A DNA stretch of 64,000 nucleotides from Nitrospirota bacterium (GCA_049325295.1 JBMOMD010000033.1:11588-75587); one strand, 5' to 3'. Shown: positions 8,047 to 64,000, numbered from the stretch's first letter. Made by a program: numbers and translations. The notes: a model not told the origin generated them from the sequence alone.

Positions 8047-8223
8047 GATTTCCAAGGCCTCTACCGCAAGGCGCGGGCCGGCGAGCTCAAGCAATTCACG
8101 GGGATCGACGATCCCTACGAAGCCCCGCTTGACCCTGAAGTTACACTGCACACGGACCGGGAGAGCGTGGAGCAGAGCGCGTTGAAGGTCGTGCGGAAGC
8201 TGGAAGAGCTGGGGTGGTGCTGA
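8047..8223 (+). pseudogene. Diverged duplicate of the 3' end of cysC (APS kinase C-terminal 57 codons), not a complete gene
   Basis: Encodes '[53 protein letters not shown]', near-identical to cysC residues at 7063-7236 with many synonymous differences. Confidence 0.7.
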
Positions 8224-8646: not shown

Positions 8647-8655
8647 GAGTGTACA

Positions 8656-8955: not shown

Positions 8956-9365
8956 CGACGTTCGCCCACCTCGTGATGACGATCAGGGGCGGCACGAGCC
9001 GGCGCCGGATTGTAGAGGCGTGCGTTCCAACGGAACAATGGACAGCCCGCCCCGTTCGCCTTCCTGCTGACGGAGGACAAGCTCCGCGAGTGCCGTGCGA
9101 TGACGGCCGAAGAAACGCTGCGCTGGCTTGAAGAGGTCAAGGCCTTCGTGAGGAATCGTGCTCCCGGAGCGGTTGGCGCGATGGACGCGACTTCTTCAAG
9201 AACGTGACGGGCCGGCCCGCGCCGGCGACGATCGTCCGTAGTCATTGATCAGGTTGTCGCGGCCGACGCCCCACGCCTCGCCACGAACCAACACCGAACA
9301 CCGAACAACGCCTCTACCGGCTAACCGGCCCACCGGCTAACCGGCGAACCGCACTGTCATCAAAA

Positions 9366-11938: not shown

Positions 11939-11977
11939 AGTGGATACGAGAAACCACAGGTGGAGTCGGGAGCGCGT

Positions 11978-14475: not shown

Positions 14476-14495
14476 GGGACTCAAGGAGGAGTCGC

Positions 14496-16678: not shown

Positions 16679-17153
16679 AGAAGACAAGCGGCTCTATCGC
16701 CGCATCGACGTCCTCATTCCATTCGGATTCCGGCCGGTGGGACGGGGCGGCGTCCAGTCGATCATGCAGACCGAACGCGAGGCGTTTCAACTCTCGGATG
16801 ACCCGGTTCGCGCGGCGTTGGATCGGATCGAGCGCAAGGTGGATCGGCTGCTGGCGCGTCTGGAATCGGGCGAACAGGCGCCCGTCCTCACGCCGCAACG
16901 GATCAACCTGAGCGGGTCGGGCGTGCGGTTCGCGAGCGACGATCCCATGGAAGAAGGCCAATACCTGGACCTCGCCATGGTGTTACCGGGGGAATCCCCG
17001 GTCTCCATCCACGCGGTCGGCGAAGTGGTGCGCCAGCGCCTGTTGGCGCGCCCGTCCGGCGCGGTGTACGAGATCGCGGTGGCGTTCGCCGATATCGCTC
17101 CCGCGGATCGGGAGGCGATCATCCGTTATACGTTCCAGGCCAACGGCCGATAG
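16668..17153 (+). CDS. PilZ-domain c-di-GMP-binding protein
   Basis: 'RRIDV' (RxxxR) and 'NLSGSGVRF' (D/NxSxGG) PilZ motifs; overlaps the kinase stop by 11 nt. Confidence 0.65.
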   Translation: MAPEEDKRLYRRIDVLIPFGFRPVGRGGVQSIMQTEREAFQLSDDPVRAALDRIERKVDRLLARLESGEQAPVLTPQRINLSGSGVRFASDDPMEEGQYLDLAMVLPGESPVSIHAVGEVVRQRLLARPSGAVYEIAVAFADIAPADREAIIRYTFQANGR

Positions 17154-17554
17154 GAGCCTGTCCATGCAAGGCCATCTGCGGCGTTGTCACTAAGGAGCCT
17201 CGGCCGCCTCACCGTCTCGGCGGCGCTCGTGACTCGGCGCCACTTCATCGTGGCGCCACTCGCCTCACGTACGACCCAGTACGCTCCACCTCAAAGCGAA
17301 GTCGTCTTGCGACCCACCTTCAAGAAATCAAATGCGGGAGTCCCCGAAGGGGGCATCTGACCACTCCTGAACAGGCTCCCAACTCGGATCACTCAGACAG
17401 ACATCTGGCACGATGCTGAAAAAATCTTGAGCGTGGTTCGACAAGCTCACCACGAACGGATATTTTCTTGCAGTATCAATTGCTCTTCCGTTCGTCCTGA
17501 GCCCGTCGAAGGACCTCCACGGGGTTTTTCAGCAGCCTGCTAAGTCAGTGGCGA

Positions 17555-18337
17555 TCAAGTTCGTCGTGACCTAGGACGTTTGTGGCGGGGGCGGGGGTAG
17601 TAGACTTCCACCAGCGTTAATCCGTGCGCCGGGGCGGTGATGCCCGCCAGGCGCCGGTCTCCCGAGGCCAATACCTCAGCCATCCCGCCGGCCGGTCGCC
17701 GGCCGAGCCCGATCTCCACGAGCGTGCCCACGATGTTGCGCACCATGTACTTGAGGAATCGATCGCCCTCGAACTCGAGGGCCACGATCTGGTCCTGGCG
17801 GCGAATCGCGCACCGCGCGAGGGTGCAGACCGTGTCGCGCGCGTCGCCGTGGGTCGGGTCGGCGCCTTCGAACGCGCGGAAGTCATGGCGGCCGAGCAGC
17901 GCCGCGGCGGCGCGCCGCATCGCGGCGAGGTTCAGCGGCCGCGGCACGTGCCACGACGTGCGCCGTTCCAGCGGGGAGGGCGTCGGGCGGTTCAGCAGGC
18001 GATAGCGGTACCGTTTGCCGACCGCGGAAAACCGGGCGTGAAATCCGGCCGGCGCGTGCTCGACCGCGAGGATTTTCACGTCCTCGGGCAGCACCGCGTT
18101 GAGCGCGCGGTGCCAGGTGTGGGGATCGAGCGCGGATCGGATTTCTACGTGCGCCACCTGGGCTTCGGCGTGCACGCCGGCGTCGGTCCGACCCGCGCCC
18201 GAGACCGCGGCGCGTTCCCCGCTGATGCGGGTGATCGCCGCCTCGAGGACGCCTTGGATCGTCGCGGCGGAGGCCTGGCGCTGCCACCCGTGGTAGTCGG
18301 TCCCGTCGTATTCGAGCGTCAAACGGAGGCGCGGCAT
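17555..18337 (-). CDS. truA: tRNA pseudouridine(38-40) synthase
   Basis: 260-aa C-terminal part of track ORF 17555..19408: 'RLRLTLEYDGTDYHGWQRQ..GAGRTDAGVHA..' TruA signature. Split from the fused ORF. Confidence 0.85.
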   Translation of the reverse strand: MPRLRLTLEYDGTDYHGWQRQASAATIQGVLEAAITRISGERAAVSGAGRTDAGVHAEAQVAHVEIRSALDPHTWHRALNAVLPEDVKILAVEHAPAGFHARFSAVGKRYRYRLLNRPTPSPLERRTSWHVPRPLNLAAMRRAAAALLGRHDFRAFEGADPTHGDARDTVCTLARCAIRRQDQIVALEFEGDRFLKYMVRNIVGTLVEIGLGRRPAGGMAEVLASGDRRLAGITAPAHGLTLVEVYYPRPRHKRPRSRRT

Positions 18338-26839: not shown

Positions 26840-26968
26840 CGAGTTTCCGTCCGTCCCCCCCGTTGGTCCCCCGATCCGTCCGTTGATTCCTTGACAGCGA
26901 TCCGACGGCTGTTATCTTTAGCGCCCGTTGGGTCGGCGACTGGTCCGTCATCCATGGAGGAGGGAGTT

Positions 26969-28075
26969 ATGAAGGCACGAACGGTGGGGAAGTGGCTCGT
27001 CGGAGTCGCGGCGCTGATTGCGTCCGTTGGGGCGATGTCCTCGGTGCTTCAGGCGGAATCGGTGGGGGACGCCAAGGTTCAGAAGGCGCGTCGCACGCTG
27101 ATTTCGCTGTCGACCCTGGATAAGATGACCGTGCTTCCAGGGGACTTGGGACCGTTGCCGGCCGTTCCGATTCCGGCGAACAATCCGCAAACGCCCGAGA
27201 AAATCGAGTTGGGGAAGATGCTGTTCTTCGATCCGCGCCTGTCGGCGAACGACCATTGGGCGTGTTCGACTTGCCACAGCCCGAGCTTCGGATACGGCGA
27301 CGGGTTGCCGCGGTCGCTCGGATTCGGGGACGAGAAGGAACTCAATCGCCATTCGCCGACCGTGATCAACATCGCGTACAACTCGGCGCAGTTCTGGGAC
27401 GGCCGGGCGGCCACCATGGAGGACCAAGCCACCGGACCGATCGTGGCGGCACGGGAGATGAACTCGAATCCCCAGCAAATGATCGAAGAGATCTCGGACA
27501 TCCCGTATTACAATGAAAAGTTCAAGGAAGTCTTCGGCGGACCTCCGTCGATGAAGAACGTGGGCATGGCGATCGCGTCGTTTGAGCGGACGCTGGTCAC
27601 GGGTGAGACCCGATTCGACAAATACGAAAAAGGGGACAAGAAGGCGCTCACCGAGCAGGAAAAACGCGGATTGGTCATGTTCGTCAGCAAGGCCGCGTGC
27701 ACGCAGTGCCACAATGGCCCGAACTTCACCGACAGCAGCTTCCACAATATCGGCGTGCCGCAGGAAGGCCCCGCCAAGGAAGACGTCGGACGGTTCGCGG
27801 TGACCAAGGATGAGAAAGACATGGGCGCGTTTAAGGTGCCGTCCTTGCGCAATATCGCGATGACCGCCCCGTACATGCACACCGGCGTGTTCGATACGCT
27901 GGACGAGGTCGTGGATTTCTACAATAAGGGCGGCGGCTCACATCCGAACAAGAGCCCCAAGATGCTTCCGCTGAACTTGACCGACGTGGAGAAGAAGGAC
28001 CTGGTGGCGTTCCTCAAGACACTCACGGGCGATCTGCCGCAGATCGTTCCTCCGCAACTTCCGCCACGGTCGTAA
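26969..28075 (+). CDS. Di-haem cytochrome c peroxidase (CCP/MauG family), secreted
   Basis: Signal peptide; two haem motifs 'CSTCHSP' and 'CTQCHNGPNFTD'; start trimmed to ATG 26969 with GGAGG RBS. Confidence 0.85.
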   Translation: MKARTVGKWLVGVAALIASVGAMSSVLQAESVGDAKVQKARRTLISLSTLDKMTVLPGDLGPLPAVPIPANNPQTPEKIELGKMLFFDPRLSANDHWACSTCHSPSFGYGDGLPRSLGFGDEKELNRHSPTVINIAYNSAQFWDGRAATMEDQATGPIVAAREMNSNPQQMIEEISDIPYYNEKFKEVFGGPPSMKNVGMAIASFERTLVTGETRFDKYEKGDKKALTEQEKRGLVMFVSKAACTQCHNGPNFTDSSFHNIGVPQEGPAKEDVGRFAVTKDEKDMGAFKVPSLRNIAMTAPYMHTGVFDTLDEVVDFYNKGGGSHPNKSPKMLPLNLTDVEKKDLVAFLKTLTGDLPQIVPPQLPPRS

Positions 28076-28108
28076 CGGGACACCATAGACAAGACAAGGA
28101 GGCCATGT

Positions 28109-28738
28109 ATGGTACGCGGGTATCGAATCGTAGGAGTGTTGGCGGCGGGCGTGTTGGCGTTGGCGCAGGTGGCTGAAGCCGGCACGGTGAGCGGGAAGGC
28201 CCGCGTGGCCGGCAAGGAGAACGCGGCGAACATCGTGGTCTATCTGGAAGGCGTGAACGGGGCGTTCACGGCGCCGCAGAAACGGCCCGAAATGAACCAC
28301 ATCAACCTTCAATTTCAGCCGTCCGTGATGGCCGTGTTGAAGGGCACCACGGTGGATTTCCCCAACAGCGACTCCGTGTTCCACAGCGCGTTCTCGATTT
28401 CTCCGTCCAACCCCTTTGATCTCGGGCTGTATCAGAAGGGCCGTGAGAAATTCGTGGTGTTCAAGAACCCCGGCGTGGTGGAGCTGTTCTGTCACATTCA
28501 CAGCCACATGCACGGATTCATCCTGGTCTTGGAGAATCCGTATTTCGCGACGACCGGTCCGGACGGCGGGTTCTCCATCCCGAACGTTCCGGATGGGAAC
28601 TACACGGTCAAGGCGTGGGCCAGCCCCACGGCGACCATGACGAAGACCGTGAGCCTGAGCGGCGATAAGAACGTGAACATGGACTTTACCTTGACGGCCG
28701 ACACGGATGCCGGCCTCACGGTGACGGCGGCTCGCTAA
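28109..28738 (+). CDS. Secreted cupredoxin-like protein (type-1 Cu motif) with carboxypeptidase-regulatory-like beta-sandwich
   Basis: Signal peptide; 'FQPSVMAVLKGTTVDFPNSDSVFHSAF' (cupredoxin His region) and 'FCHIHSHMHGFILV' (C-x2-H-x2-M); 'GGFSIPNVPDGNYTVKAW' CarboxypepD_reg-like. Confidence 0.6.
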   Translation: MVRGYRIVGVLAAGVLALAQVAEAGTVSGKARVAGKENAANIVVYLEGVNGAFTAPQKRPEMNHINLQFQPSVMAVLKGTTVDFPNSDSVFHSAFSISPSNPFDLGLYQKGREKFVVFKNPGVVELFCHIHSHMHGFILVLENPYFATTGPDGGFSIPNVPDGNYTVKAWASPTATMTKTVSLSGDKNVNMDFTLTADTDAGLTVTAAR

Positions 28739-37765: not shown

Positions 37766-38650
37766 TCAGACCCCGAGTCGAGACAAGTCGAGCCGACCTC
37801 CGGCGACGGGCGGGCACCAATAGTAGCCGCCGCTCACCGGCCGGGAGAACGAAAAGAGCGCGTCAACGATTCCGTCATCGAGGCCGACCATCCGGCGCAG
37901 CACGCGTTCATACCGGTCGAGGGACTCCACGTAGGCGATGAACTCCAGCCCCTGCTCGCGCGCCGTGGCCCACGGCATGGAGCGCCGCACCATGAACGCC
38001 GGCGGATCGTAGCTTTCCTGCGCGCTGCGCTTCACGTGCGCCGAGGGCGGTGCGTCGGCGATTTCGGCGTTCGTGTCGGCTCGCCGCCCCATCACTGCGT
38101 CGCGCGTGTCCGATGGAAACGAGCGAAACCGCCGTAAGTCGTGGGCCCACCGCTGAACCGCAACAAAACTCGAACCCTCCAGACCCTTTCCGGCCGGGAC
38201 GAGCGCCGCGCCAATGGCCGCCTCATCACGAGGATTCTCGGTGCCGTCCTCGTAGCCGGTAAGATCCTTCCCGCCCGCATAGGTAAAGGTGTCCAGTGCG
38301 TCATCGAGGATGAACGCCTCGTGGAGGAAGGACTGGATCCGTTCGGTCATATCGAATATCACGCCGCGATCGTGTCCCCGAAGCAAGACCCAGAGTCCCT
38401 GCTGCGTCGAGGGTACGCTGCAGCCGGATCCGGCGAGCCCGGGAAACACGCGGAGCCCCGGCACGTCCCGACCGAGCGCGCGCGCAACCGGCTCGCCCAC
38501 GCCGACAACGCCCCATTCAACGTCGAAGCCGTCGCGCAAGCGCTTCAACGCGGAACGCAGGTCACCGCCGGATGTCATTCGAAACGTCAGCGACCGCCCC
38601 AGGATCGGCGGGGCTGCAAGAATGCCGGGTTGCGCGAGGTCGATCTTCAT
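37766..38650 (-). CDS. Dyp-type peroxidase
   Basis: GxxDG motif 'TGYEDGTENP', 'FVAVQRWAHDL', DyP-like C-terminal half. Confidence 0.75.
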   Translation of the reverse strand: MKIDLAQPGILAAPPILGRSLTFRMTSGGDLRSALKRLRDGFDVEWGVVGVGEPVARALGRDVPGLRVFPGLAGSGCSVPSTQQGLWVLLRGHDRGVIFDMTERIQSFLHEAFILDDALDTFTYAGGKDLTGYEDGTENPRDEAAIGAALVPAGKGLEGSSFVAVQRWAHDLRRFRSFPSDTRDAVMGRRADTNAEIADAPPSAHVKRSAQESYDPPAFMVRRSMPWATAREQGLEFIAYVESLDRYERVLRRMVGLDDGIVDALFSFSRPVSGGYYWCPPVAGGRLDLSRLGV

Positions 38651-52669: not shown

Positions 52670-53038
52670 ATGAAAACACGCTACATGGTGTTGGTGGGGG
52701 TGCTGGTCGCGTCGGGCTTCTTACAATTGTCGGCTGTTCAGCCCGCATCCGCGGCCGACCGCGAGATCATCATGGAGTCCCAGGCGTTTTCCCCTCAGTT
52801 GATGACGATCAGAGTCGGCGACCGTGTGCGGTGGATGAACGTCGACAAACAGGATCATTACCTGACGTCGTCGGGTCCCGAAACGAGAACCGTGGCGACG
52901 CAGGTCGCGGATTTGGAGTTCCACCAACTGATGGCTCCGGGGAGCAATTTCTACCACTCGTTCAAGGAGCCGGGCGTGTACGCCTATTTCTGCGCGATTC
53001 ACATGGGGATGGGGGGCACGGTGGTGGTCGAACCGTAA
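52670..53038 (+). CDS. Small secreted cupredoxin (plastocyanin/amicyanin-like blue copper protein)
   Basis: Signal peptide; 'VRWMNVDKQDHYL' (N-x-D-x3-H) and 'YFCAIHMGMGGTVVV' (C-x2-H-x2-M); RBS GGAGGA before ATG 52670. Confidence 0.75.
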   Translation: MKTRYMVLVGVLVASGFLQLSAVQPASAADREIIMESQAFSPQLMTIRVGDRVRWMNVDKQDHYLTSSGPETRTVATQVADLEFHQLMAPGSNFYHSFKEPGVYAYFCAIHMGMGGTVVVEP

Positions 53039-53058
53039 CCCTGTCCTGATCGAATTTA

Positions 53059-53093
53059 AAGCCGCGGCGTCCGATGACGCCGCGGCTTTTTTT
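53059..53093. terminator. Bidirectional rho-independent terminator between convergent cupredoxin genes
   Basis: 13-bp stem 'aagccgcggcgtc/gacgccgcggctt', 4-nt loop, flanked by AAA on one side and TTTTTTT on the other. Confidence 0.7.
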
Positions 53094-53106
53094 GCGTTCG
53101 CCGTTC

Positions 53107-54111
53107 TCAATGCGACCGCGACAAGCGGTCGGCGTCCAGCCGTAATTCGTTCGCGATCTCGTCCGCCGCGCGCGTCAACGTCGACTCCGTGTCGGTCGCG
53201 TCGGTCAGGCCTTGAATGCGCTTTCGGAATTGGTCCAGGCGTCGCTCGTGGTCGGCCGCCCGCTCCGGACTGATACGCTTCGCGACGGCGTCGCGGAGCC
53301 CGGACTCTCCGTAGAGGCGCGACTGCGCGGCGGTCGCTCGGATGGTCGCGGCCGTGATCGCGCCGTTTTTCCACAGCGCCACGGCTTTGAGTAATTGCTC
53401 GCGGATTTGGTCGACAACGGCCCCCCAGTCCTGATCGATCGTGTCGGTCAGATCAACGCCGGGGGCGGCCGACGCGCGCAATTGCAGCGCGACCGTCACC
53501 GGAGCCGCGGCCACCGTCACCGTCGCGCGGGCCTGCGCCTGCTCATCGGGCGAGACCCGCGAATGCCAAGCTTCCACGTGGTACGCGCCCTCGGGAACGC
53601 CGGTGATCCGAAACGCGCCCCGCTCGTCAGTGACGGCAAAATACGGGGAGGGTGCCACGTACACGAGCCCGCGCATGGTTTCGTGGGTGCGGCAGCGCAG
53701 GGGCACCGCGCCCGGGTTCTTCACGGTGACACGGGTGATCGTATCCGGCATGTGGGCGCCGGTGTCGAAGCGGTTGGTCTTGGATCGGGAGTGGATGTTG
53801 TGAATCTCCTGGTCCAGATTTTCGAAGGCGATCGTCGTCCCCACCGGGACCACGACAAAGTCCGGGTCAAATCGCAGGTCCTTCTGGCGGATGCGTTGCT
53901 CCACGGGTGCCGCTGCGAGCGGCTGTCCGTCGGCGCGCTGGAGGTAGACCACGGCTCGCGACGCGGTATCCCCATTGATCGTGACGCGGCCGGTGACCAC
54001 GCCCTCTCCGGCGGCGAGCGCGCTGCCGGAGAGGCCCATGAGCGCGAGGCCCAACAACGCAAGGATGCGGGTGGCGAGAGGAAAGCGGGGAAGGCTCCGC
54101 GTCGTGTTCAT
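53107..54111 (-). CDS. Secreted cupredoxin-like protein (same subfamily as 28109..28738) with C-terminal helical extension
   Basis: 334-aa C-terminal part of track ORF 53107..55218; signal peptide; 'FDPDFVVVPVGTTIAFENLDQEIHNIHS', 'LRCRTHETMRGLVYV' (C-x2-H-x2-M), 'GAFRITGVPEGAYHVEAWH'. Confidence 0.6.
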   Translation of the reverse strand: MNTTRSLPRFPLATRILALLGLALMGLSGSALAAGEGVVTGRVTINGDTASRAVVYLQRADGQPLAAAPVEQRIRQKDLRFDPDFVVVPVGTTIAFENLDQEIHNIHSRSKTNRFDTGAHMPDTITRVTVKNPGAVPLRCRTHETMRGLVYVAPSPYFAVTDERGAFRITGVPEGAYHVEAWHSRVSPDEQAQARATVTVAAAPVTVALQLRASAAPGVDLTDTIDQDWGAVVDQIREQLLKAVALWKNGAITAATIRATAAQSRLYGESGLRDAVAKRISPERAADHERRLDQFRKRIQGLTDATDTESTLTRAADEIANELRLDADRLSRSH

Positions 54112-54192
54112 AAACACGGATCTTACCACGGGCCGATCGCGCTGCGATCGATAACGGCTCGGTTGAAATTTCACCGCGACCGGGGTAGTTTT

Positions 54193-55161
54193 ATGGAAGA
54201 GGTTAAACCCGGGAGCTGGCCGATGACGCGTCTCGTGCATTCCTCGCTGGTTCTCGTGGTCCTGTTCTGGACCACGTCCGTTGCCTGGTCGTATCAGATT
54301 TCGGAACCGACGAACGGCGGCAGAATCACCGGAATCGTGACGCTGCGAGGCCAAATTCCGCAGCCGCGCGCGTTTCCCATGGTGCTGTATCCGCACGGGG
54401 AGTTCTGCAAAAAGCTCTCCGATGGGAACGGCCACGTCCTGCTCAAGGAGTTCAACGTCGACTCGTCCGGGGCGCTCCAAGACGTGGTGGTGGCGGTGCA
54501 GAACGTGTCTCACGGCAAGGCGTTTCGTTCCCGGGATACGGATCTCGAAACCGTGAACTGCATGTTCCACCCCGCGGACGTGCCGGAGAGCGAACAGTTC
54601 GCCCATCGCGAGGGACACCTGGTCCACATCCATCCGCTCGTGACCGTGATGCGCGACCCGAGCCTGCTGACCGTGGCCAACCGCGACCCGATCGTGCACG
54701 CGGCGCAGGTGTATCAGGCGGAGAAGGGCAATCGGGTCCTGAGTTTTCCGATTCCGGTGTCCTACAGACCGAACAGCGGGTACGTGGACCTGGAAAAAGG
54801 TAAACGGATCGTGCAGATCATTTGCGGCATGCACGAGTACATGCAGACGTGGGCGTGGGTGGTGGACAACCCGTACTTTGCCAAGACCCACGCGGGCGGC
54901 GGGTTCGCGATCGACAAGCTGCCGCCGGGAACCTACCGCGTGCTGGCGTGGCATCCGCACATGAAGCCGATCGTCAAAGAGGTCGTGGTTCCGGCCGACG
55001 GTGCGGTGACGCTGGACTTTGAGTTCGACGCGAGCCAGGTGGTCCGGCCGATCTATGAGACGCAGGAACAGTTCCGCATCCCGCCGACCCGCGATCCCGC
55101 GGTCGACCTGAGCGGGTGCGAAGGGCCGTATTGCGTGAAACGGGAACACGACCACCACTGA
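54193..55161 (+). CDS. Secreted CarboxypepD_reg-like + cupredoxin-like protein (paralog of 62500..63465)
   Basis: Signal peptide; 'NRDPIVHAAQVY' and 'ICGMHEYMQTWAWVV' (C-x2-H-x2-M); C-terminal 'CEGPYC'. Confidence 0.6.
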   Translation: MEEVKPGSWPMTRLVHSSLVLVVLFWTTSVAWSYQISEPTNGGRITGIVTLRGQIPQPRAFPMVLYPHGEFCKKLSDGNGHVLLKEFNVDSSGALQDVVVAVQNVSHGKAFRSRDTDLETVNCMFHPADVPESEQFAHREGHLVHIHPLVTVMRDPSLLTVANRDPIVHAAQVYQAEKGNRVLSFPIPVSYRPNSGYVDLEKGKRIVQIICGMHEYMQTWAWVVDNPYFAKTHAGGGFAIDKLPPGTYRVLAWHPHMKPIVKEVVVPADGAVTLDFEFDASQVVRPIYETQEQFRIPPTRDPAVDLSGCEGPYCVKREHDHH

Positions 55162-55327
55162 TCCCCGGTTCCCGGCACGGCCGCGCGCAGCGCGGTCGTG
55201 CCGTTTCTTCCAGCGCACGCCTCATCCGAACGGGGGATGAACTTCCCCCGACAAATCCGTCTCCGTACTTACCTCGAAGCATGGATCACCCATGACTCGC
55301 GCAGTAATCTCGTTCACAGGAGGAAAC

Positions 55328-56299
55328 ATGCGACGTATCGGTGTGTTGACCAGCGGGGGCGACGCCCCCGGCATGAACGCGGCGATCCGGGCGGTGACCC
55401 GGACCGGGATCGCGGCCGGGCTTGAAGTCGTGGGCATCCGTCGCGGGTTCGCGGGACTGATCGCGGGCGATCAGATCGTGCTGACCTCGCGATCGGTGAG
55501 CGGGATCATCGACCGGGGCGGCACGATGCTGGGCAGCGCGCGCTGTCCGGAATTCACGACCGAGGACGGCCAGCGTCGGGCGTTGGACGCGATCCGGGCC
55601 GCGGCCCTGGACGCGCTGATCGTGATCGGCGGGAACGGATCCCAGGCCGGCGCGTTCACCCTCGACAAACTGGGGGTGCCGGTGGTGGGCGTGGCCTCCA
55701 CCATCGACAACGACCTCGAGGGCAGCGACATCACCATCGGCGTGGACACCGCGCTCAACGTCGCGTTGGGAGCGATCGATCGGATCAAAACCACCGCGGC
55801 ATCGCACCGGCGGGCGTTCCTGGTGGAAGTGATGGGACGCGACTGCGGGTATCTGGCGCTGATGACCGGGATCGCGGGCGGGGCCGAGGTGGTGGCGATT
55901 CCCGAGCAGGCGTGCGACCCCGAAGCCATGGCCGCGCAATTCCGCGCGGCGTACGACGGGGGCAAGGCGCACGCGATCGGGGTGATCGCCGAAGGCGCCA
56001 AGTTTCGCGCCGCGGACATCGTGGAGTATTTTCGCGCACACCATGAACGCATCGGTTTTGACCTGCGCGTGACGTGTTTGGGCCACATCCAGCGCGGGGG
56101 CGCGCCCGGGGCGTTCGATCGGTTGCTCGCCACCCGTCTCGGAGCCGGCGCGGTCGACGCGCTGTCGCGGGGAGCGCATGGGGTGTTGGTGGGACTGGTC
56201 CGCGGCGACGTGGCCGCCACGCCGCTATCGGAGGTGGTCGCGTCCTGTAAGCCGCTCGACATGCGGCTGTGGGAGCTGGCCAAGGTCCTGGCGAGGTGA
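55328..56299 (+). CDS. pfkA: ATP-dependent 6-phosphofructokinase
   Basis: 'RIGVLTSGGDAPGMNAAIRAV', 'GGNGS', 'STIDNDL', 'MGRDCG'. Confidence 0.85.
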   Translation: MRRIGVLTSGGDAPGMNAAIRAVTRTGIAAGLEVVGIRRGFAGLIAGDQIVLTSRSVSGIIDRGGTMLGSARCPEFTTEDGQRRALDAIRAAALDALIVIGGNGSQAGAFTLDKLGVPVVGVASTIDNDLEGSDITIGVDTALNVALGAIDRIKTTAASHRRAFLVEVMGRDCGYLALMTGIAGGAEVVAIPEQACDPEAMAAQFRAAYDGGKAHAIGVIAEGAKFRAADIVEYFRAHHERIGFDLRVTCLGHIQRGGAPGAFDRLLATRLGAGAVDALSRGAHGVLVGLVRGDVAATPLSEVVASCKPLDMRLWELAKVLAR

Positions 56300-56330
56300 C
56301 GAGTCGAACCGGTGAAAGGAGGACGCGGCG

Positions 56331-56537
56331 ATGAATCATAACGTCGGCAACATCGATCGGGTGGTGCGCGGGGCGGTGGGGATCGTATTGGCGGTGGGCG
56401 CGCTCAGCGCCGGGGCGCCGGTTGTCCGCGGGGTCCTGGGCGTGGCCGCGCTGATCATGGTGGGCACCGCCCTCCTGGGATTCTGCCCCCTGTACCGCGT
56501 GTTCGGATTAAACACCTGTCGGCGGGGAACCCGATAG
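56331..56537 (+). CDS. DUF2892 (YgaP-like) small membrane protein
   Basis: 'DRVVRGAVGIVLAVGAL..GFCPLYRVFGLNTC' typical DUF2892. Confidence 0.7.
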   Translation: MNHNVGNIDRVVRGAVGIVLAVGALSAGAPVVRGVLGVAALIMVGTALLGFCPLYRVFGLNTCRRGTR

Positions 56538-56947
56538 TGGAACCTTCCGCGGTGGTGACGTGGCAAGGCGGTGTTCGGTTCGCCGCGGACGTCCGCGGCC
56601 ACCGGATGGTCATTGATCAGCCCAAGGACGAGGGCGGGAGCGACGAAGGCATGACCCCATTGGAGTGTCTGGCCGTGTCATTGGGGAGTTGCGTGGCGTA
56701 CTTTGCGGCCCGGTTCGCGCAGCGGCACGGGGCGGCGCTCGAGGCGCTGCGCGTGGACGTGGCGTGGGACTACGCGGAGCGGCCGCATCGGGTCGGGCGC
56801 TTTGACGTGCGATTGACCTATCGCGGCGCGATCGACCGCACCATGTGCGAGCGCCTGCTGGCCGTGGCGCGGGGATGCACCGTGCACCATACCCTGACGC
56901 ACCCGCCGGAGATCAGCGTGACACTCCATGAAGATTCAAACGCGTAA
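56537..56947 (+). CDS. OsmC/Ohr family peroxiredoxin-like protein
   Basis: 'PLECLAVSLGSCVAYFAA' and C-terminal 'GCTVHHTL' OsmC-type Cys pair. Confidence 0.7.
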   Translation: MEPSAVVTWQGGVRFAADVRGHRMVIDQPKDEGGSDEGMTPLECLAVSLGSCVAYFAARFAQRHGAALEALRVDVAWDYAERPHRVGRFDVRLTYRGAIDRTMCERLLAVARGCTVHHTLTHPPEISVTLHEDSNA

Positions 56948-57130
56948 CCCCACAACGCGGCGCACGGCCCCGTGCGCCGGGGACGATGGATCACCCTTTC
57001 GAGGCATCATCGGCTACACGGCCCTGCGGTACGCGGAATTCATCTACCCCCATCCACCCAAAAGGCCCAGGAAAATACCTATTCTGACCAATCGACGCCA
57101 TAGGGTGCAACAGGATAGAACGGAACCAAC

Positions 57131-57538
57131 ATGGTCGGGAAAACTTTCGTGACGGCGAAACGGAGGGTTTTGGTGGTGGGCAGCGCATCGCTGTTCGGGT
57201 CGGCGATGGAGGGGCTGTTGGGCGCGGAGTGCGGCGATCGCGTGGACGTGGAGTCGGTCGCGACAGTGGACGCGGCGATCGAAGCCGCACCGAAGTTCCG
57301 ACCGGACGTGATCGTGTTCTGTTTGGAGCGCGACGATGCCCGCGATCAGAGTGCACTCCATCGACTGAGCCTGCTGGACGCGTATCCGGCCCGGATCGTT
57401 CGCTGCACCCTGGAGCACAACCACCTGACCGTGTATGACACGAGACGGATCACCGATGCCACGCCGGAGGACCTCATCGAGGCGGTGTGTCAGGTCGGTG
57501 AGAATCCGCTCGACTACGAGAAAGGGGGAGGCGAATGA
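57131..57538 (+). CDS. Hypothetical pseudo-receiver-like protein; stop codon overlaps start of the giant oxidase (ATGA)
   Basis: Flavodoxin/REC-like alternation ('RVLVVGSASLFGSAMEGLL', 'PDVIVFCLERDD') without an obvious phospho-Asp; stop overlaps downstream ATG. Confidence 0.4.
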   Translation: MVGKTFVTAKRRVLVVGSASLFGSAMEGLLGAECGDRVDVESVATVDAAIEAAPKFRPDVIVFCLERDDARDQSALHRLSLLDAYPARIVRCTLEHNHLTVYDTRRITDATPEDLIEAVCQVGENPLDYEKGGGE

Positions 57539-60500
57539 CGAGGACGAAGTGGATGCGGGTGGCAGTGGGGGGGCTGGCACTGGGTGCGTGGCTATCCGGC
57601 GGCCCACCTGCGGTGCGCGCCGCGGATGAACACGGCGCGCACGAGGCGGGATCTGGAACGACCGTGGTCGCGGCCGCTCAGGAACCGGCGTCGTGGGAAC
57701 AGAAATTCAAGGAGCAGTTGGAACGGGAGGATGTGGCGGAAGGCCGCATGGGTCACCGGGAACAGGTGCAGGCCGCAATGAACAAGCTGATGGAGGAAAT
57801 CGCGCGTGGCACCAACGCGCACGGCGCCCATACCGCGGCGCAAGGTCCGTACAGCGACGCGGCCATGGCTCAGCAGATGGACGGCAGCTATTTTCTGGGC
57901 GTGGCCTCCACGGCCGAGAGCGTGACCCAGGGCGGCCGCTGTCCCGCGAACGTGCCGACCAAAACCTACGACGTATCGGCCATCAACGTGGAGATCACGC
58001 TGAACCAATGGTTGGACTATCACCCCGGCTACATGTACGCGCTCACCGAGGATCTCCCCAGGGTCCGGGAGGAAGAGAAGGTTAACCGGGAAGCGCGCAA
58101 ATCAACGGGATACAACCCCGGTGCCGTGACCCTCGGCATGCAGACCGACGCGATTCAGCCGATCGTGCTCCGAGGGAATCAGGGCGATTGCGTGGTCATT
58201 ACCCTGCGGAATCAGCTCGACGGCGAGGACGTGGGGATTCACGTCCACGGCTCCAGTATGATCATCAAGTCTACCGGAGCCGCGGCCACCGCGGCGAACG
58301 CCGACTCCACGGTCAAACCGGGCAAGAGCCAGACGTTCGAATGGTATATCCTGCCGTCAGAGCAGGAAGGCTCGCACATGCTCCACAGCCACGTGGGTCG
58401 CGAGCAGGCGAGCTTGGGCATGATCGGCGCGTTCATCGTCGAGCCGATGGGGTCCCGGTACCTGGATCCGATCTCCGGGAAAGAGGTCAAGAACGGGTGG
58501 CAAATGATGATCGACGACCCGAAGGGGCCGGACTTCCGGGAGTATGCGATCTTCTACCACGAGATCGGCGACGAGTCGTTCCGGCCGTTGAACAAACAGG
58601 GCGATACGGTTCCGCAACGCGACCCGAACACGGACGCGTACCGACCGTCGGCGCGGGCGCTGAACTATCGCAGCGAGCCGTTCGGCATCAACAATCTGGC
58701 GCTCCAAGAGAAGTATTTCCACTTTGAAGATGAGTCCATGTCCTACAGTTCGTACACCTTCGGCGACGTGCCGACGCCGATTCCGAGGGGCTATATGGGC
58801 GATCCGAACAAGTGGCGCTTGATTCACGGCGGAGGCGAGGTGTTTCACTCGCACCACCCCCACGGGGGATCGATCCGCTGGCTGCGTCAGCCCAAGGCCG
58901 ACGGCAAGGGGCAGTTCCTGTTGACCGCGGCCGGCAACGGACCGGTGAAGTATCCTGAAGTCAGGACCACGTCGGATCGGGTGGACGTAGAAGTGATCGG
59001 ACCATCCGAAGTGCTCGATCTTCAGACCGAATGCGGTTGGGGATTGTGTCAGCAGGTGGCGTCCGAGTATCTGTTCCACTGCCACGTCGCGCACCACTAC
59101 GTCGCGGGCATGTGGTCCTACGGCCGAGGGTACAACACGCTGCAGACCGGCAACTACCCGTTAGGCAGCACCGACCCGATGCCGCCGTTACAGGAACTTC
59201 CGGACCGCAAGGGGCGGATGAAGGCCGCGGTGACGTCGGATCAGTTGGTGGGCAAGACCATGGACTGGTACGACAAGAAGTGGAACATCACCGCGAACAA
59301 GACGGACTTCTCCAAGCCCATTCCGGACGTGTCGATCAAGGATTGGGTCAAGATGATGCTCCCGCCGGCCGGACAGCCGGGCCATACCGCGGATGAGAAA
59401 GGCCAGATCATGGCCTACGACGCGACCGTGTTCGACTGGATCTGGGACGGGAACAAGGCCATGGGCGAGGCCGAGGCGACTCAGAAGTTCGACAACCCGA
59501 AGTACAAGTCGCCGATACCCGGGAAACGGCCGCCGATCCTGTTTGACGCCAAGACCGGCAAGCTGGCCCATCCGTTTATGAAGCCGCATTTCGGCAAACG
59601 GAATCCCTTCGGCAGGCATCATGGACCGGCGCCGTGGTTGGAACCGATCCATATGGACAAGAGCACCGGGTCGTTGGCCACCGAGCCCGGCGGTCTGGGC
59701 GTTGCCGGAGGCGAGACGAATCAGCCAGCGCGTCCGGGCGAGCAGGGCAAGTGGAGTCTTTGCCCTGAAAAAGCCGGTCGCAAGCAATACACGATCCACT
59801 TTATCGAAACCCCGATTACCATGAATCAGGCCATCGGGAAACAGAAGCCGGTGGTGGATCAGCACGGGACCATCTATGTGCTGCATGAGGAGGAGGCCGC
59901 GGTCCGTGCCAACTCCGACTTGGCCCGTCCGCTGGTCTATCGATCCAACGTGTACGACTGCGTGGACGTCATCTTGAAGAGCGAGTGGGAGGACAACGAC
60001 ACCACGAACTTCCAGATGTCCAAGATCAACATCCATCCGCACTTCATGCAGTTCGACAACAACGCGAGCGACGGCGTGATCACCGGATTTGCCTATGAGA
60101 TGTCGGTCCGGCCGTTCACGCAGTTCAAGAAGGACAAGCACAAGGGGTTGCCGGTGCCGATGAACGCCCGCCTGACGGAGGACGTCAAGGCTGGCGCCAC
60201 GTCGATCAAGATCCAGATGCCGGAAGGCGCGACGAAATACCACGTCGGCACCGACATCATGATCGGGATGGACGAGGTCAACACCTCGGAGGTTCGCTGG
60301 ATCACGGACATCAAGGGCGACACGCTGGTGTTCGGCGAGCCGCTCAAACACGCCCACAAGAAGGGCGAGATCGCGTCGGTGGAATTCATCCGGTATCGCT
60401 ACTGGGTGGACGTGGATCTCGGCACCGTGTTCTGGCACGACCACGCGCTCGGCGGCACCACGTGGCCGCACGGCGCGGTGGGCGGCAACATCGTCGAGCC

Positions 60501-62439
60501 ATACGGTTCGACGTATCATGACCCTGTGACCGGAAAAGAGATCCGGAGCGGGCCGATCGCGGATATTCATACGACGGAGCCGGTGGGCTATGGCGTGAAC
60601 GGCAGTTTCCGTGAAATGGTGCAATACCTGCACGATACCGTGCCGTACACCGCGCAGGTCGTCACCGCGGGCAATCCGCCGGGACAGACGGTGCAGGCGG
60701 CGATCGACGCGGGGCAGGCGTTGTTCTTCCAGATGCCGTACGACCTGGATCTGGTGTCGGTGCCCATGATCAACGGCGGGACCCACACCACCGGAGGCGG
60801 GTTTTTCTTCAAGGCGGAATCCATCGCCAAACGCCTCAAGAACAATCCGGACCCGTCGCAGGTTTTCTCCACCAAAGTCCACGGGATCGATCCGGGAACG
60901 CCGATGTTGCGCGCCTACGTGGGCGACCCGGTGGTGTTTCGCGTGCTGCACGTGATGATGAACGAATCGCACACGTGGCATATGGCCGGGCACGCGTTCC
61001 GCACCGAACGGTACGCGGAGCATTCGGATTTCCGAAACGCGTACCACGTGGGCATCGCGGAACGGTACGACCTGGTGACCAAGGCCGGCGGACCGCAGCG
61101 GATGGCCGGGGACTACCTGCACTACGACGGGCGTCCCTCCCATTTGTCGGAAGGAAGCTGGGGGATCTTCCGGGTCTTGGATAAAGAAGTGCCTGATCTC
61201 AAGAAGCTGCCGGGTTACGAGGAGATTCCGGCGTCCGCGAAGGCGGTGTGTCCGTCGGATGCGCCGGTCAAGACCTTCAACGTGATCGCGGCGGATCGGG
61301 CGTTGAAGTACAACGTCAACGCGCCGGACGCGATCGAGGTGGATTTCGACCGCACGATCCAAGTGGCGAACCCGCAGGGCAAGATCTACATACTCGAAGG
61401 GGAAAAGTCGAAAGTGGCGGAAGGCGGAGCGCAGCCCATGCCGCTGACCCTGCACGTGAACGTGGGGGACTGCATCAAGGTCAACTTGAAGAATGAAATG
61501 AAGGCGAGCCGCGCGTCGTTCAGCGCGGACATGCTGGCGTTCGATCCCAAGGATTCGCAAGGGGTCAACGTGGGCAACAACCCCGGCGACCAGACGGTGG
61601 GGCCGGGCCAGAGCCGGACCTACACCTACTACGCGCCTCCGCAGTACGGGGAGACCGCGGCGCTGGTGTGGGACTGGGGGAACTTCGTCAACAACGTCCG
61701 GGACGGGTTGTTCGGGGCGATCATCGTCGGGCCGAAGGGATCGAAGTACCGGGATCCCAAGACCGGCGAGGACGTCGGCCTGAAGAACGCGTGGCAGGTG
61801 GACGTGGTCGTGGACCGGACGATTCCGGAGAATGCGACCAAGTCCGATTACCGCGATGCCTCGTTGTTCTTCCAGGACGAGGACAATATCATCGGGACCG
61901 CGTTCATGCCCTATATCCAACAGATCGGCGGATTGACGGGCGTGAATTACCGGACCGAGCCGTGGTTGTATCGTGAGGAGAAGGGCTGCGACATGGGCAG
62001 TATGTTCACGCCCTGCGTGGCCGGGGAATCCGATCCGGTCACCCCGACCATCATGTCCCATGCGGGCGATCCGGTGAAGATCCACGTGTTCGGCGCGTTC
62101 AACGAGCAGAACCAGGTCTTCAGCTTGGAGGGTCATGAATGGCCGCTCAAAGTCAACATGGAAGGCGCTGATATGCTCAGTTCGGAAGAGTTCGGCTCCT
62201 CCGAGAACTTGAATGTCTTCTTGAGAACAGCGGGTGGGCCGTTCAATCTTCCGGGGGACTACCTCTGGCAGAACCATCGGATGCCGTATGCCCAAGCTGG
62301 GCAGTGGGGGTATCTGCGGGTGCTGCCGGCCGGGGATCGACGGATCCTTCCGCTGAACAGCGGAGGGCCTGGCGGTCGGACCGCGGAGTTGCCGCGGGAA
62401 GACGGGCTGGCTGTCTCGATGTTGCAGCCGGAGAAGTAA
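57535..62439 (+). CDS. Giant secreted multicopper oxidase (1634 aa, MofA/MnxG-like, >=6 cupredoxin domains in three tandem pseudo-repeats)
   Basis: Signal peptide; MCO copper motifs 'IHVHG', 'MLHSH', 'HSHHPHG', perfect type-1/trinuclear signature 'HCHVAHHYVAGM' (H515-C516-H517..H521..M526); second unit 'IHPHF', 'WHDHALGGTTWPHG', 'HTWHMAGHAF'; third unit degenerate. Confidence 0.8.
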   Translation: MTRTKWMRVAVGGLALGAWLSGGPPAVRAADEHGAHEAGSGTTVVAAAQEPASWEQKFKEQLEREDVAEGRMGHREQVQAAMNKLMEEIARGTNAHGAHTAAQGPYSDAAMAQQMDGSYFLGVASTAESVTQGGRCPANVPTKTYDVSAINVEITLNQWLDYHPGYMYALTEDLPRVREEEKVNREARKSTGYNPGAVTLGMQTDAIQPIVLRGNQGDCVVITLRNQLDGEDVGIHVHGSSMIIKSTGAAATAANADSTVKPGKSQTFEWYILPSEQEGSHMLHSHVGREQASLGMIGAFIVEPMGSRYLDPISGKEVKNGWQMMIDDPKGPDFREYAIFYHEIGDESFRPLNKQGDTVPQRDPNTDAYRPSARALNYRSEPFGINNLALQEKYFHFEDESMSYSSYTFGDVPTPIPRGYMGDPNKWRLIHGGGEVFHSHHPHGGSIRWLRQPKADGKGQFLLTAAGNGPVKYPEVRTTSDRVDVEVIGPSEVLDLQTECGWGLCQQVASEYLFHCHVAHHYVAGMWSYGRGYNTLQTGNYPLGSTDPMPPLQELPDRKGRMKAAVTSDQLVGKTMDWYDKKWNITANKTDFSKPIPDVSIKDWVKMMLPPAGQPGHTADEKGQIMAYDATVFDWIWDGNKAMGEAEATQKFDNPKYKSPIPGKRPPILFDAKTGKLAHPFMKPHFGKRNPFGRHHGPAPWLEPIHMDKSTGSLATEPGGLGVAGGETNQPARPGEQGKWSLCPEKAGRKQYTIHFIETPITMNQAIGKQKPVVDQHGTIYVLHEEEAAVRANSDLARPLVYRSNVYDCVDVILKSEWEDNDTTNFQMSKINIHPHFMQFDNNASDGVITGFAYEMSVRPFTQFKKDKHKGLPVPMNARLTEDVKAGATSIKIQMPEGATKYHVGTDIMIGMDEVNTSEVRWITDIKGDTLVFGEPLKHAHKKGEIASVEFIRYRYWVDVDLGTVFWHDHALGGTTWPHGAVGGNIVEPYGSTYHDPVTGKEIRSGPIADIHTTEPVGYGVNGSFREMVQYLHDTVPYTAQVVTAGNPPGQTVQAAIDAGQALFFQMPYDLDLVSVPMINGGTHTTGGGFFFKAESIAKRLKNNPDPSQVFSTKVHGIDPGTPMLRAYVGDPVVFRVLHVMMNESHTWHMAGHAFRTERYAEHSDFRNAYHVGIAERYDLVTKAGGPQRMAGDYLHYDGRPSHLSEGSWGIFRVLDKEVPDLKKLPGYEEIPASAKAVCPSDAPVKTFNVIAADRALKYNVNAPDAIEVDFDRTIQVANPQGKIYILEGEKSKVAEGGAQPMPLTLHVNVGDCIKVNLKNEMKASRASFSADMLAFDPKDSQGVNVGNNPGDQTVGPGQSRTYTYYAPPQYGETAALVWDWGNFVNNVRDGLFGAIIVGPKGSKYRDPKTGEDVGLKNAWQVDVVVDRTIPENATKSDYRDASLFFQDEDNIIGTAFMPYIQQIGGLTGVNYRTEPWLYREEKGCDMGSMFTPCVAGESDPVTPTIMSHAGDPVKIHVFGAFNEQNQVFSLEGHEWPLKVNMEGADMLSSEEFGSSENLNVFLRTAGGPFNLPGDYLWQNHRMPYAQAGQWGYLRVLPAGDRRILPLNSGGPGGRTAELPREDGLAVSMLQPEK

Positions 62440-62499
62440 TGGCATTCGGACAACGGTAGTCGGGAGGGGCAGGGAACCGCGGATGTTCCCTGCCCCTTC

Positions 62500-63465
62500 A
62501 TGTCGAGCAAGGGGAACGCAATGCGGCGTGTCACTGGTGTACGAGGTGTCTTAACAGGATTGGTCGTGGCGGCAGTGGCCGGGGGCTCGCTGGCCTGGGC
62601 CGTTCCTGATTATGAGGAGACGACGGTGAGCAACGCCGGCAGCATTACCGGCACCGTGAGCTTAACCGGGCCGATTCCCGAACCCAGGGTGTTCCCCTTG
62701 GTCCTGTATCCATTCGGTCCATTCTGCAAAAAGATTTCGGACGGCCGCGGCCATATTCAGGTGGACGAGTTCCTCGTGTCATCGGACCGTGGACTGCAAG
62801 ATACGATCGTCGCGGTCCAGCAGGTCAGGAAGGGCAAGCCGTTTCCGCCCCTCAAACAGGAGCTGGTGGCGGTAGACTGCATGTTCCATCCCGCGGAGAC
62901 CGCGGAGGACGAACTGTTTGCGATCGACGCCAAGGGCAAGTTGCACCACGAGCACCCCTTGGTCATGGTGCTGAGAAATCACCAGCCGATCTGGGTGGTC
63001 AACCGCGACCCGATCATCCACAACGGGCAGGTCTTTCAGAACGAAAAGGGCAATATCATTCTCAACTTCCCATTGCCGGTGGCCGAGGAACCGCGCGGCG
63101 GCATGCTGGATTTCGATCCGGGAAAACGCGTCTCCCAGATGATTTGCGGCATGCACGAATTTATGCAGGCGTGGGGATTCGTCGTGGACAATCCGTACTA
63201 CGCGCGAACCAAGAAAGACGGGAAATTCACGATCGACGGACTGCCGCCCGGCACCTATCGCGTGGCCGCGTGGCATCCGCACTTGCCGATCATCGAGCGG
63301 GAAGTAACGGTGCCGGCCGACGGCACGGCGTCATTCGATGTGGTATTCGACGGGTCGCGGGTCGTGCGTCCTGCGTACGAAAGCCAGGAGAAGTTTCGGA
63401 TCGGGCCGGAGGCGCGTCCCCATGAACACCTGGAAGAATGCGTGCCTCCCTATTGCGAGGAGTAG
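62500..63465 (+). CDS. Secreted CarboxypepD_reg-like + cupredoxin-like protein
   Basis: Signal peptide; 'NRDPIIHNGQVF', 'ICGMHEFMQAWGFVV' (C-x2-H-x2-M), 'GTYRVAAWHPH', C-terminal 'CVPPYCEE'; ~55% identical to 54193..55161. Confidence 0.6.
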   Translation: MSSKGNAMRRVTGVRGVLTGLVVAAVAGGSLAWAVPDYEETTVSNAGSITGTVSLTGPIPEPRVFPLVLYPFGPFCKKISDGRGHIQVDEFLVSSDRGLQDTIVAVQQVRKGKPFPPLKQELVAVDCMFHPAETAEDELFAIDAKGKLHHEHPLVMVLRNHQPIWVVNRDPIIHNGQVFQNEKGNIILNFPLPVAEEPRGGMLDFDPGKRVSQMICGMHEFMQAWGFVVDNPYYARTKKDGKFTIDGLPPGTYRVAAWHPHLPIIEREVTVPADGTASFDVVFDGSRVVRPAYESQEKFRIGPEARPHEHLEECVPPYCEE

Positions 63466-63467
63466 CG

Positions 63468-64000
63468 TATGAACACGCGAGCGGTGATCGGGCGACTGGT
63501 CGCGGCCGGATGGGCGGGTCTGGTGATCCTGACCGGGGCATCGGTGAGCTGGGGGTACGAAGAGGTCTCGGTGCGTGACGGCGGCACCATCACCGGCCGG
63601 GTGGTGCTCAATGGGCCGCCGCCGCCGGCCAGGATCTACCACATGGTGTTCTCGCCGAACATCGACTTCTGTACTCGGATCTCCGACGGCAACGGGAACC
63701 GGCTGCTTCCGGAGTTTCGGGTCTCGGACGCCGGGGACTTTCAAGACGTGGTGGTGGCCGTGGTCGGCGTGGAGCGGGGCAAGCCGTTCGACTACACGCC
63801 GTCGTTGACGTTGGAAAACTGCCGCATGGGGCCGTTCGTCACCGCGGTCAGGAACGGCCACCCCTTGGCGATCGTCAACAAGGATCCCGTGGTTCACGAC
63901 GTGCAAGGCTACACCAGCGGTGATCCGTATACGTTCATGATGTTCAACAAGCCGATGCTGCCGGAAAGCAGCGTGTCGAAGGACATTCGTCTCAGAAACG
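63468..64000 (+). CDS. Secreted CarboxypepD_reg-like + cupredoxin-like protein, 3'-truncated at window edge
   Basis: Signal peptide; 'ITGRVVLNGPPPPARIYHMVFSPNIDFCTRISDGNGN' aligns with N-termini of the two paralogs above; 'NKDPVVHDVQGY' His-region. Confidence 0.55.

Follow-up and report, generated by a model that had tools for sequence, protein, structure and literature searches.

The Mnx complex of Bacillus PL-12 and SG-1, which is located on the spore exosporium, consists of a multicopper oxidase (MCO) with six cupredoxin domains, MnxG, and of the accessory subunits MnxE and MnxF (MnxG + MnxE3F3; Protein Data Bank (PDB) entry 9bxa). A periplasmic multicopper protein that resembles the Mn oxidase of Bacillus SG-1 was described in Nitrospina gracilis and Nitrospira defluvii by Luecker 2013 (PMC3578206), who proposed a Mn(III)-based defence against reactive oxygen species for it. 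Saunders 2022 found that 'MnxG' is the second most abundant oxidoreductase of Nitrospinae in Pacific metaproteomes and stressed that its function is unconfirmed (PMC9477243), while Yu 2022 reported 'two novel MCOs' in every Manganitrophaceae genome, as part of the core genome (PMC9040806). We have analysed a locus at 52670-64000 in a 64-kb stretch of DNA from a Nitrospirota bacterium (the window; GC content about 65%, which is high). It encodes an oxidase of this family (57535-62439, + strand, 1,634 aa), two small cupredoxin-type partners, I and J, immediately downstream, and three other small copper proteins, A, B and C, further upstream. An earlier note on this DNA had presented the locus as plausibly a lithotrophic or metal-oxidation module that had not been described; as the three reports show, the family had been described. 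Our preferred reading, to which we give a probability of about 0.5, is that of a conditional periplasmic metal oxidase of the MnxG type that works with cupredoxin partners and is not part of a core energy pathway.

The oxidase gene is one open reading frame (ORF) without stop or frameshift, and residues 2-1634 of its product are collinear with homologues of 86-92% identity, which bears out the earlier note's description of a giant oxidase gene. Its N-terminus resembles a Sec signal peptide (MTRTKWMRVAVGGLALGAWLSGGPPAVRA/ADE), behind which a short His-rich stretch is found in all homologues. Pfam reports a single Cu-oxidase domain pair at residues 201-305 (Cu-oxidase_3, 2.9e-15, and Cu-oxidase_2). 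All four motifs of the MCO superfamily are present: H834-P-H836, H968-D-H970, H438-xx-H441-x-H443 and H515-C-H517-x3-H521-x4-M526. They comprise the type-1 copper ligands H438, C516, H521 and M526, all in domain 2, and the ligands of the trinuclear cluster, namely H441, H443, H515 and H517 in domain 2 and H834, H836, H968 and H970 in domain 3. These 12 residues are invariant in 58/58 aligned homologues. The oxidase is thereby predicted to have a full type-1 site and, as in MnxG, an eight-histidine, O2-reducing trinuclear cluster at the interface between domains 2 and 3.

A phmmer search of the PDB matched the protein with MnxG of Bacillus sp. PL-12 (9bxa_A) at 9.7e-101, over 5-6 collinear stretches. 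The middle region scored 1.5e-14, with its HPHF and WHDH motifs aligned with HIHF and HDH of MnxG, and the C-terminal 235 residues scored 3.7e-35. In domain 2, HSHHPH aligns with HVFHYH, and HCHVAHH..M with HCHLYP(A340)F..M; the 9bxa entry is that of the H340A mutant, and the mutant alanine aligns with H521 of the oxidase. An AlphaFold2 (AF2) model covering residues 396-1595, with a mean predicted local distance difference test (pLDDT) score of 69, also had 9bxa_A as its best Foldseek match (8.6e-54, 1,050 aligned columns, 21% identity, template modelling score 0.49). The runners-up were ceruloplasmin and coagulation factors V and VIII, at around 1e-24 and 10-12% identity, which share the overall six-domain fold with the window oxidase. 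Ceruloplasmin has three type-1 sites and a trinuclear cluster at the interface between domains 1 and 6. MnxG is thus the best PDB match both in sequence and in fold, and it has its six cupredoxin domains in the same order as the window protein, with the type-1 site (HCH-x3-H-x4-M, HxxHxH) in domain 2 and trinuclear HxH pairs in domain 3; in both systems, small accessory proteins are encoded beside the oxidase. Judged by its sequence and its modelled fold, the protein is a genuine MnxG-like giant six-domain MCO, as the earlier note had supposed.

There are also clear differences from MnxG. The window oxidase is longer by about 400 residues, owing to an N-terminal extension of about 140 aa, a longer linker between domains 2 and 3 and an insertion of about 90 aa in domain 3. 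Its score with the NCBIfam model NF041487 (copper_ox_MnxG, an equivalog of 1,894 positions) was 82.7 bits, over three short stretches, which is far below the cut-off of 3,100. The accessory genes of the window lie downstream of the oxidase gene and encode type-1 cupredoxins with a transthyretin-like domain, whereas the Bacillus accessory subunits are MnxE and MnxF, and the window oxidase would operate in the periplasm of a Gram-negative cell, unlike the exosporium-bound Mnx. Domain 1 contains an extra HxHG/HxH pair (H236, H238, H286 and H288). The Nitrospiria clade conserves this pair, Nitrospina-type homologues have other residues in its place (QVNG, QSH), and Bacillus MnxG lacks it. In domain 6 we found no matching ligand set that would complete a second trinuclear site with this pair. 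An MCO of the CueO/PcoA/CopA type was considered and rejected: the protein has six domains and no Met enrichment, and the window is devoid of cop and cus genes. A CueO-like Met-rich N-terminus was rejected as well, since the N-terminal region contains 4.7% Met, against 3.1% elsewhere.

Gene I (62500-63465, +, 321 aa) starts 60 bp behind the oxidase gene and encodes a protein with a signal or anchor segment, a type-1 cupredoxin domain, a CarboxypepD_reg domain and a conserved C-terminal tail. After a gap of 3 bp it is followed by its paralogue J (63469-64000, +), of which 177 aa are encoded up to the window end. To the window we compared 33 genome loci together with Manganitrophus SA1, Nitrospina gracilis and one close relative, and partners were counted in the 25 loci that extend 900 bp or more past the oxidase gene. 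In 24 of these 25 loci, Manganitrophus and Nitrospina gracilis included, the oxidase stop is followed within 600 bp by the start of an I/J-type partner; this downstream-partner criterion for the giant MCO family was defined in the present analysis and does not come from the literature. In the lone locus without a partner, the oxidase is a divergent, extra paralogue encoded just upstream of a further oxidase-I-J set. In 13 loci, I is followed by a J-like gene. The best oxidase matches were found in metagenome-assembled genomes (MAGs) of Nitrospirota (92% identity in Betzabe_MAG040 and 86% in RIFCSPHIGHO2_01_FULL_66_17), and relatives have two oxidase paralogues per genome (L007 and L011 in one MAG, L005 and L022 in another). 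The lineage of the window belongs to the class Nitrospiria, which also holds the Manganitrophaceae. The oxidase-partner pair forms a module that is conserved in Nitrospirota (Nitrospiria, Manganitrophaceae among them) and in Nitrospinota.

Standard domain models describe the partners poorly. With Pfam, C and I show CarboxypepD_reg only and the window's J shows nothing, and for B a Copper-bind match (4e-4) falls just short of the cut-off (21.1 bits versus 21.2) beside a CarboxypepD_reg match. Nevertheless, B, C, I, a further protein of the window called K, and the full-length orthologues of J share a His...Cys-x2-His-x2-Met ligand set together with the CarboxypepD_reg (transthyretin-like) domain. 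We aligned B, C and I with full-length orthologues of J, with the partner from Manganitrophus and with three relatives from Nitrospina, and every complete sequence retains this pattern. The window's J ends before the Cys-His-Met loop; its full-length orthologue in L007 and L038 has 290 aa. In the I family, the ligands H174, C216, H219 and M222 are invariant in 26 sequences, as are C76, C127, H130, H150, H152, H259 and H261, and C, I and J have an insertion of about 100 aa with invariant Cys and His residues. A structure model of the partner family gave a cupredoxin fold and a transthyretin-like fold. Ligand pattern and model thus support the presence in the partners of a cupredoxin domain that Pfam misses, and the earlier note's assignment of the small proteins to the cupredoxin type holds, with the His, Cys, His and Met ligands complete.

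The ligands of B, C, I, J and K are those of plastocyanin and amicyanin, with an amicyanin-like C-x2-H-x2-M loop, and what these proteins carry in addition is the transthyretin-like domain. Protein A, in contrast, matches such blue copper proteins directly (Pfam cupredoxin, 3e-11; PDB plastocyanin, 5e-10). All six small proteins have N-terminal hydrophobic, signal-like segments. The earlier note counted five paralogues, and this is true in part. C, I and J are close to each other (54% identity between C and I, about 35% between J and I), and B has the same architecture. B is distant, however, matching C and I at 1e-10 over the cupredoxin end and the CarboxypepD_reg domain only, and matching A at 4e-7 over the cupredoxin domain; A has a single domain; and K is a sixth member, to which B is linked at 2e-29 with 37% identity. 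In databases, relatives of the partners are labelled 'hypothetical', 'carboxypeptidase regulatory-like domain-containing protein' or, at the Joint Genome Institute (JGI), 'plastocyanin'. The wider family amounts to 2,509 clusters at 50% identity (E <1e-10), a number that includes matches to the transthyretin-like domain alone.

Gene A (52670-53038, +, 122 aa) encodes a secreted single-domain protein of the plastocyanin/amicyanin type with the motif CAIHMGM. It converges with gene B (53107-54111, -, 334 aa), whose product has a signal peptide, a type-1 cupredoxin domain (CRTHETM), a CarboxypepD_reg domain and a helical C-terminal extension of about 120 aa. Between the two lies a bidirectional intrinsic terminator hairpin (53058-53089), its 14-bp stem flanked by an A-tract and, on the opposite side, a T-tract. 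The earlier note had placed this terminator between facing cupredoxin genes at 53107 and 54193; these two genes, B and C, are in fact divergent, with starts 81 bp apart. Gene C starts at 54193 (322 aa) or, more likely, at 54223 (312 aa), ends at 55161 (+) and forms a transcription unit of its own, with a second terminator (55173-55203) at its 3' side. In other respects, the gene coordinates of the earlier note were found to be correct to within 1-30 nt, J starting at 63469 and not at 63468. A, B and C are thus separate transcription units, fenced off from the oxidase by terminators and by the pfk and OsmC genes. In locus L001, a B orthologue is found downstream of J, and the closest relative, L007/L038, has none of A to C near the oxidase. 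Gene K (28109-28738, +, 209 aa; signal, cupredoxin domain with CHIHSHM, CarboxypepD_reg) lies elsewhere in the window, directly 3' of a gene for a di-haem cytochrome c peroxidase/MauG-like protein (CCP_MauG, 4e-55), the pair spanning 26891-28738 (+). Its product is 100% identical to a Nitrospirota MAG protein (P0241). A, B, C and K belong to the same expanded cupredoxin family and are likely to work with periplasmic redox enzymes other than the oxidase.

Such observations could be taken to mean that the whole neighbourhood is coincidental and that the small copper proteins have no functional relation to the oxidase. The separate transcription units of A, B and C, which are mostly non-syntenic in relatives, and the large size of the family, with its transthyretin-only matches, would be in keeping with this. 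For I and J it is already disfavoured by the synteny of I in 24/25 loci from two phyla, by the short gaps behind the oxidase and between I and J, and by the co-variation of transcripts in strain Mn1 (see below), and we consider it extremely improbable. What remains of the 'ring' of five small proteins dedicated to the oxidase, as pictured in the earlier note, are the conserved partners I and J: only these two are syntenic with the oxidase across genomes, and A, B and C are not.

Upstream, the oxidase gene overlaps by ATGA with the stop of gene G (57131-57538, +), and a strong ribosome-binding site, GGGGGAGG, precedes the oxidase start. G encodes a cytoplasmic protein of 135 aa that had been called a pseudo-receiver. 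It has no Pfam or NCBIfam family, and no Pfam match was obtained even at E values up to 10. A profile of ten G orthologues searched against the PDB returned receivers (CheB, 1.1e-4; VraR, 2.4e-4; then CheY and FrzS, up to 0.1), and hhalign of the family with four receivers gave collinear but weak alignments, with a probability of 9.6%. The phospho-acceptor Asp and the acidic pocket are absent, and neither these residues nor the Thr/Ser and Lys conserved in receivers are among the invariant columns; the end of beta-1 reads LVVGSAS or LLITTQS and the beta-3 position VIVFCLE or VVVYFKE. Thus, the overlap and the lack of phospho-acceptor residues are confirmed, and 'pseudo-receiver' is a fair description of a protein whose receiver fold is putative. 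Only the clade of the window has G ahead of the oxidase, in about 11 loci.

In the region upstream of the G/oxidase operon (56948-57130), the short elements CCTTTCGAG and CCCAnCAAAATAC...GAGAATCGAC are common to L001, L005 and L007 and could represent a candidate promoter or operator. A scan upstream of the operon for sigma-70, FNR/CRP and sigma-54 sites found no consensus. Between C and G lie, as the earlier note had it, pfkA (55292 or 55328 to 56299, +; PFK Pfam match at 1e-100), a gene for a YgaP-like transmembrane/DUF2892 membrane protein (56331-56537, +; 2e-18) and one for an OsmC-family peroxiredoxin-like protein (56537-56947, +; 6e-14). L001 has the same trio on the upstream side of its oxidase gene, and L005 has just pfk there.

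In other genomes, several further genes accompany the module. A CopD-like/DUF4149 membrane protein of 150 aa and a hemerythrin are encoded on either side of the oxidase-partner genes in six loci, including Manganitrophus (at 9248-9700 and 16028-16594 in L002; also in L009, L018, L024, L029 and L034). In Manganitrophus the CopD-like gene is upstream and the hemerythrin gene downstream, whereas the window's clade has the pseudo-receiver gene upstream instead. A secreted protein of about 184 aa, for which no family was detected, is encoded within a few kb of the oxidase, upstream or downstream, in at least 14 loci (L038, at 11866-12420; also L001, L008, L010-L012, L015-L017, L022, L025, L026 and L031). 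It is a further accessory candidate, whose gene in the window's genome is probably located just past the window end. For the DNA beyond this end, L001 and L007/L038, relatives of 87-92% identity, served as stand-ins. We also noted in L038 an 86-aa ORF (12823-13083) ending with GLLRVLPKGDKRILALD, similar to the oxidase C-terminus GYLRVLPAGDRRILPLN; it may be a remnant of an oxidase gene.

L038, whose oxidase is 92% identical to that of the window, also contains a CusCBA-like efflux operon of the resistance-nodulation-division (RND) type (14154-17610), about 2 kb downstream of J, made up of an OEP gene, an RND pump gene and a gene for a Met-rich, YtkA-domain-containing fusion protein of the CusB/CzcB type. 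In L001, too, a CusB/CzcB-like gene is found downstream. The oxidase could be viewed as a periplasmic cuprous oxidase like CueO or PcoA, with partners that bind or deliver copper for its homeostasis. The CopD-like protein, which adjoins the oxidase and is co-expressed with it in Manganitrophus, the efflux operon with its Met-rich fusion protein, and the His-rich stretch behind the signal peptide in all homologues fit with such a role. They have to be set against the six-domain, MnxG-like architecture, which is not the three-domain one of CueO, the lack of a Met-rich segment, the absence of copA and cus genes from the 64-kb window, the restriction of the Cus-like neighbour to the two closest relatives, and the type-1 sites of the partners, which are of the classical electron-transfer kind and not of the Met/Cys kind found in chaperones. 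Overall, we regard a role in copper homeostasis as unlikely.

The protein of Nitrospina gracilis 3/211 (P0095) is 59% identical to the window oxidase over at least 96% of the query, has the same length (1,634 aa) and is followed by the same cupredoxin/CarboxypepD_reg partner. Its surroundings are different. The gene is accompanied by cytochromes c and accessory genes of nitrite oxidoreductase (NXR), whereas the window copy is accompanied by pfk, OsmC and the pseudo-receiver gene; more precisely, the Nitrospina oxidase and three members of the partner family are found with c-type cytochromes and an EB_dh (NxrC-like) protein, and AhpC is also a neighbour. Luecker 2013 placed the gene in an NXR/bd-like oxidase cluster that includes 'cupredoxin-like copper-binding proteins' (PMC3578206). 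In the ocean, the Nitrospinae protein peaks at low O2, at the boundary of the oxygen-deficient zone, and correlates negatively with O2; in oxygenated water it correlates with catalase (PMC9477243). These data raise the possibility of a cupredoxin:O2 oxidoreductase, in which the partners would bring electrons from respiratory or NXR-associated components to the type-1 site of the oxidase, which would then act as an auxiliary, O2-scavenging terminal oxidase. The hemerythrin neighbour in six loci would be consistent with this, and so would the pairing of K with a di-haem peroxidase, which suggests that the family serves periplasmic oxidoreductases generally. Yet periplasmic O2 reduction conserves no energy, such a role is not known for any six-domain MCO, and NXR, cytochrome c and bd-like genes are lacking around the module in the window. 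We find this explanation distinctly unlikely.

The Manganitrophus SA1 protein (P0007) is closer, with 78% identity over at least 96% of the query, the same oxidase-partner order and two paralogues per genome. For strain Mn1, RNA levels of the oxidase in seven Mn-oxidising cultures were 35.6, 40.0, 35.2, 2200.5, 334.0, 132.5 and 1976.1 (Yu 2022, Table S6), i.e. a 62-fold range among cultures that were all oxidising Mn; expression was high in samples Mn09 and Mn12 and low in Mn03, Mn06 and Mn08. The transcripts of the nearby CarboxypepD_reg and CopD-like genes track that of the oxidase (log-Pearson 0.84 and 0.97, respectively). These published transcriptomes show that the module is strongly inducible and not constitutive.

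The same genus provides arguments for an energy-conserving metal lithotrophy, in which Mn(II) or another metal would be oxidised at the type-1 site of the oxidase and the type-1 cupredoxins would take the electrons into the respiratory chain and not to O2. The window lineage shares its class with the Mn-lithotrophic Manganitrophaceae, whose core genome has two such oxidases, and the mean expression of the Mn1 oxidase is at the 95th percentile. A role of the MCOs in lithotrophy would need a periplasmic electron carrier according to Yu 2022 (PMC9040806), and the conserved partner cupredoxins are candidates for it. The same authors prefer Cyc2 and porin-cytochrome complexes for Manganitrophus (PMC9040806), and the conserved trinuclear cluster offers electrons a direct internal sink in O2. 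Because this O2-reducing cluster is intact, because the module is also present in nitrite oxidisers and because expression swings 62-fold among cultures all growing on Mn(II), the lithotrophic role put forward in the earlier note is disfavoured, and we judge it very unlikely. A more specific version would have I and J as the missing periplasmic acceptors for an energy-conserving, copper-based lithotrophy on Mn or another metal, with the His quartet of domain 1 as an extra, clade-specific metal site; we mention it as a highly improbable one.

We come back to a conditional metal oxidase with cupredoxin partners. In the mechanism that we propose, the oxidase would take single electrons from a metal ion at the type-1 site and deliver them to O2 at the trinuclear cluster. 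If one reaction had to be named, homology with Bacillus Mnx would point to the oxidation of Mn(II) to Mn(III). I and J would dock on the oxidase as redox-active accessory subunits, as analogues and not homologues of MnxE and MnxF, and expression of the module would depend on conditions such as metal stress, oxidative stress or low O2. We count in favour of this proposal the neighbours that suggest stress or homeostasis functions, namely OsmC (window and L001), AhpC (Nitrospina), hemerythrin, the CopD-like protein and the CusCBA-like proteins, together with the Mn(III)-based defence proposed by Luecker 2013 and the abundance of the ocean protein at low O2 and its correlation with catalase.

A number of points weigh against it. 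Identity with Bacillus MnxG is only about 21%, and domain 2 is poorly predicted in the AF2 model (pLDDT <50), so that the copper sites were placed by alignment. No homologue of MnxE or MnxF was found: no 9bxa chain was among the PDB matches of I, B, A or the G-family profile (C and J, both paralogues of I, were not searched separately). With a complete trinuclear cluster the oxidase can do without an external carrier, which gives the type-1 partners no obvious role. To our knowledge, Nitrospina and Nitrospira do not deposit Mn oxides. Copper handling would account for the CopD-like and Cus-like neighbours no less well than Mn. Each genome carries two oxidase paralogues, and the Mn1 gene whose RNA levels are given above may not be the strict orthologue of the window copy. 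Finally, no activity has been assayed for any member of this oxidase family (PMC9477243).

Outside the locus described here, the window contains housekeeping and regulatory genes. A toxin-antitoxin pair, made up of a Gp49/HigB-like toxin and an HI1420-type helix-turn-helix antidote, is encoded at 8356-8955 (+). It is preceded by a 98-aa ORF (7927-8223, +) whose match to the adenosine 5'-phosphosulfate (APS) kinase model is confined to about its last 35 positions and which is probably a gene remnant. A DyP-type peroxidase (37766-38650, -) is the third peroxide-related gene product of the window, with the di-haem peroxidase and OsmC.

The window thus provides a new member of an already known, environmentally important family, and no new kind of system. 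In the dark ocean, few Nitrospinae oxidoreductases are as abundant as the oxidases of this family (PMC9477243), which are also part of the core genome in the only Mn-lithotrophs known (PMC9040806). What is new here is the near-constant, dedicated partner, whose type-1 cupredoxin domain escapes the standard Pfam and NCBIfam models, the one-to-one correspondence of the copper sites of the oxidase with those of the solved MnxG structure, and the strong inducibility seen in the published Manganitrophus transcriptomes. With a defined pair or triple of proteins, the hypotheses on what these bacteria do with the oxidase are narrowed to four: Mn(III)-based stress defence, copper handling, O2 scavenging and lithotrophy.

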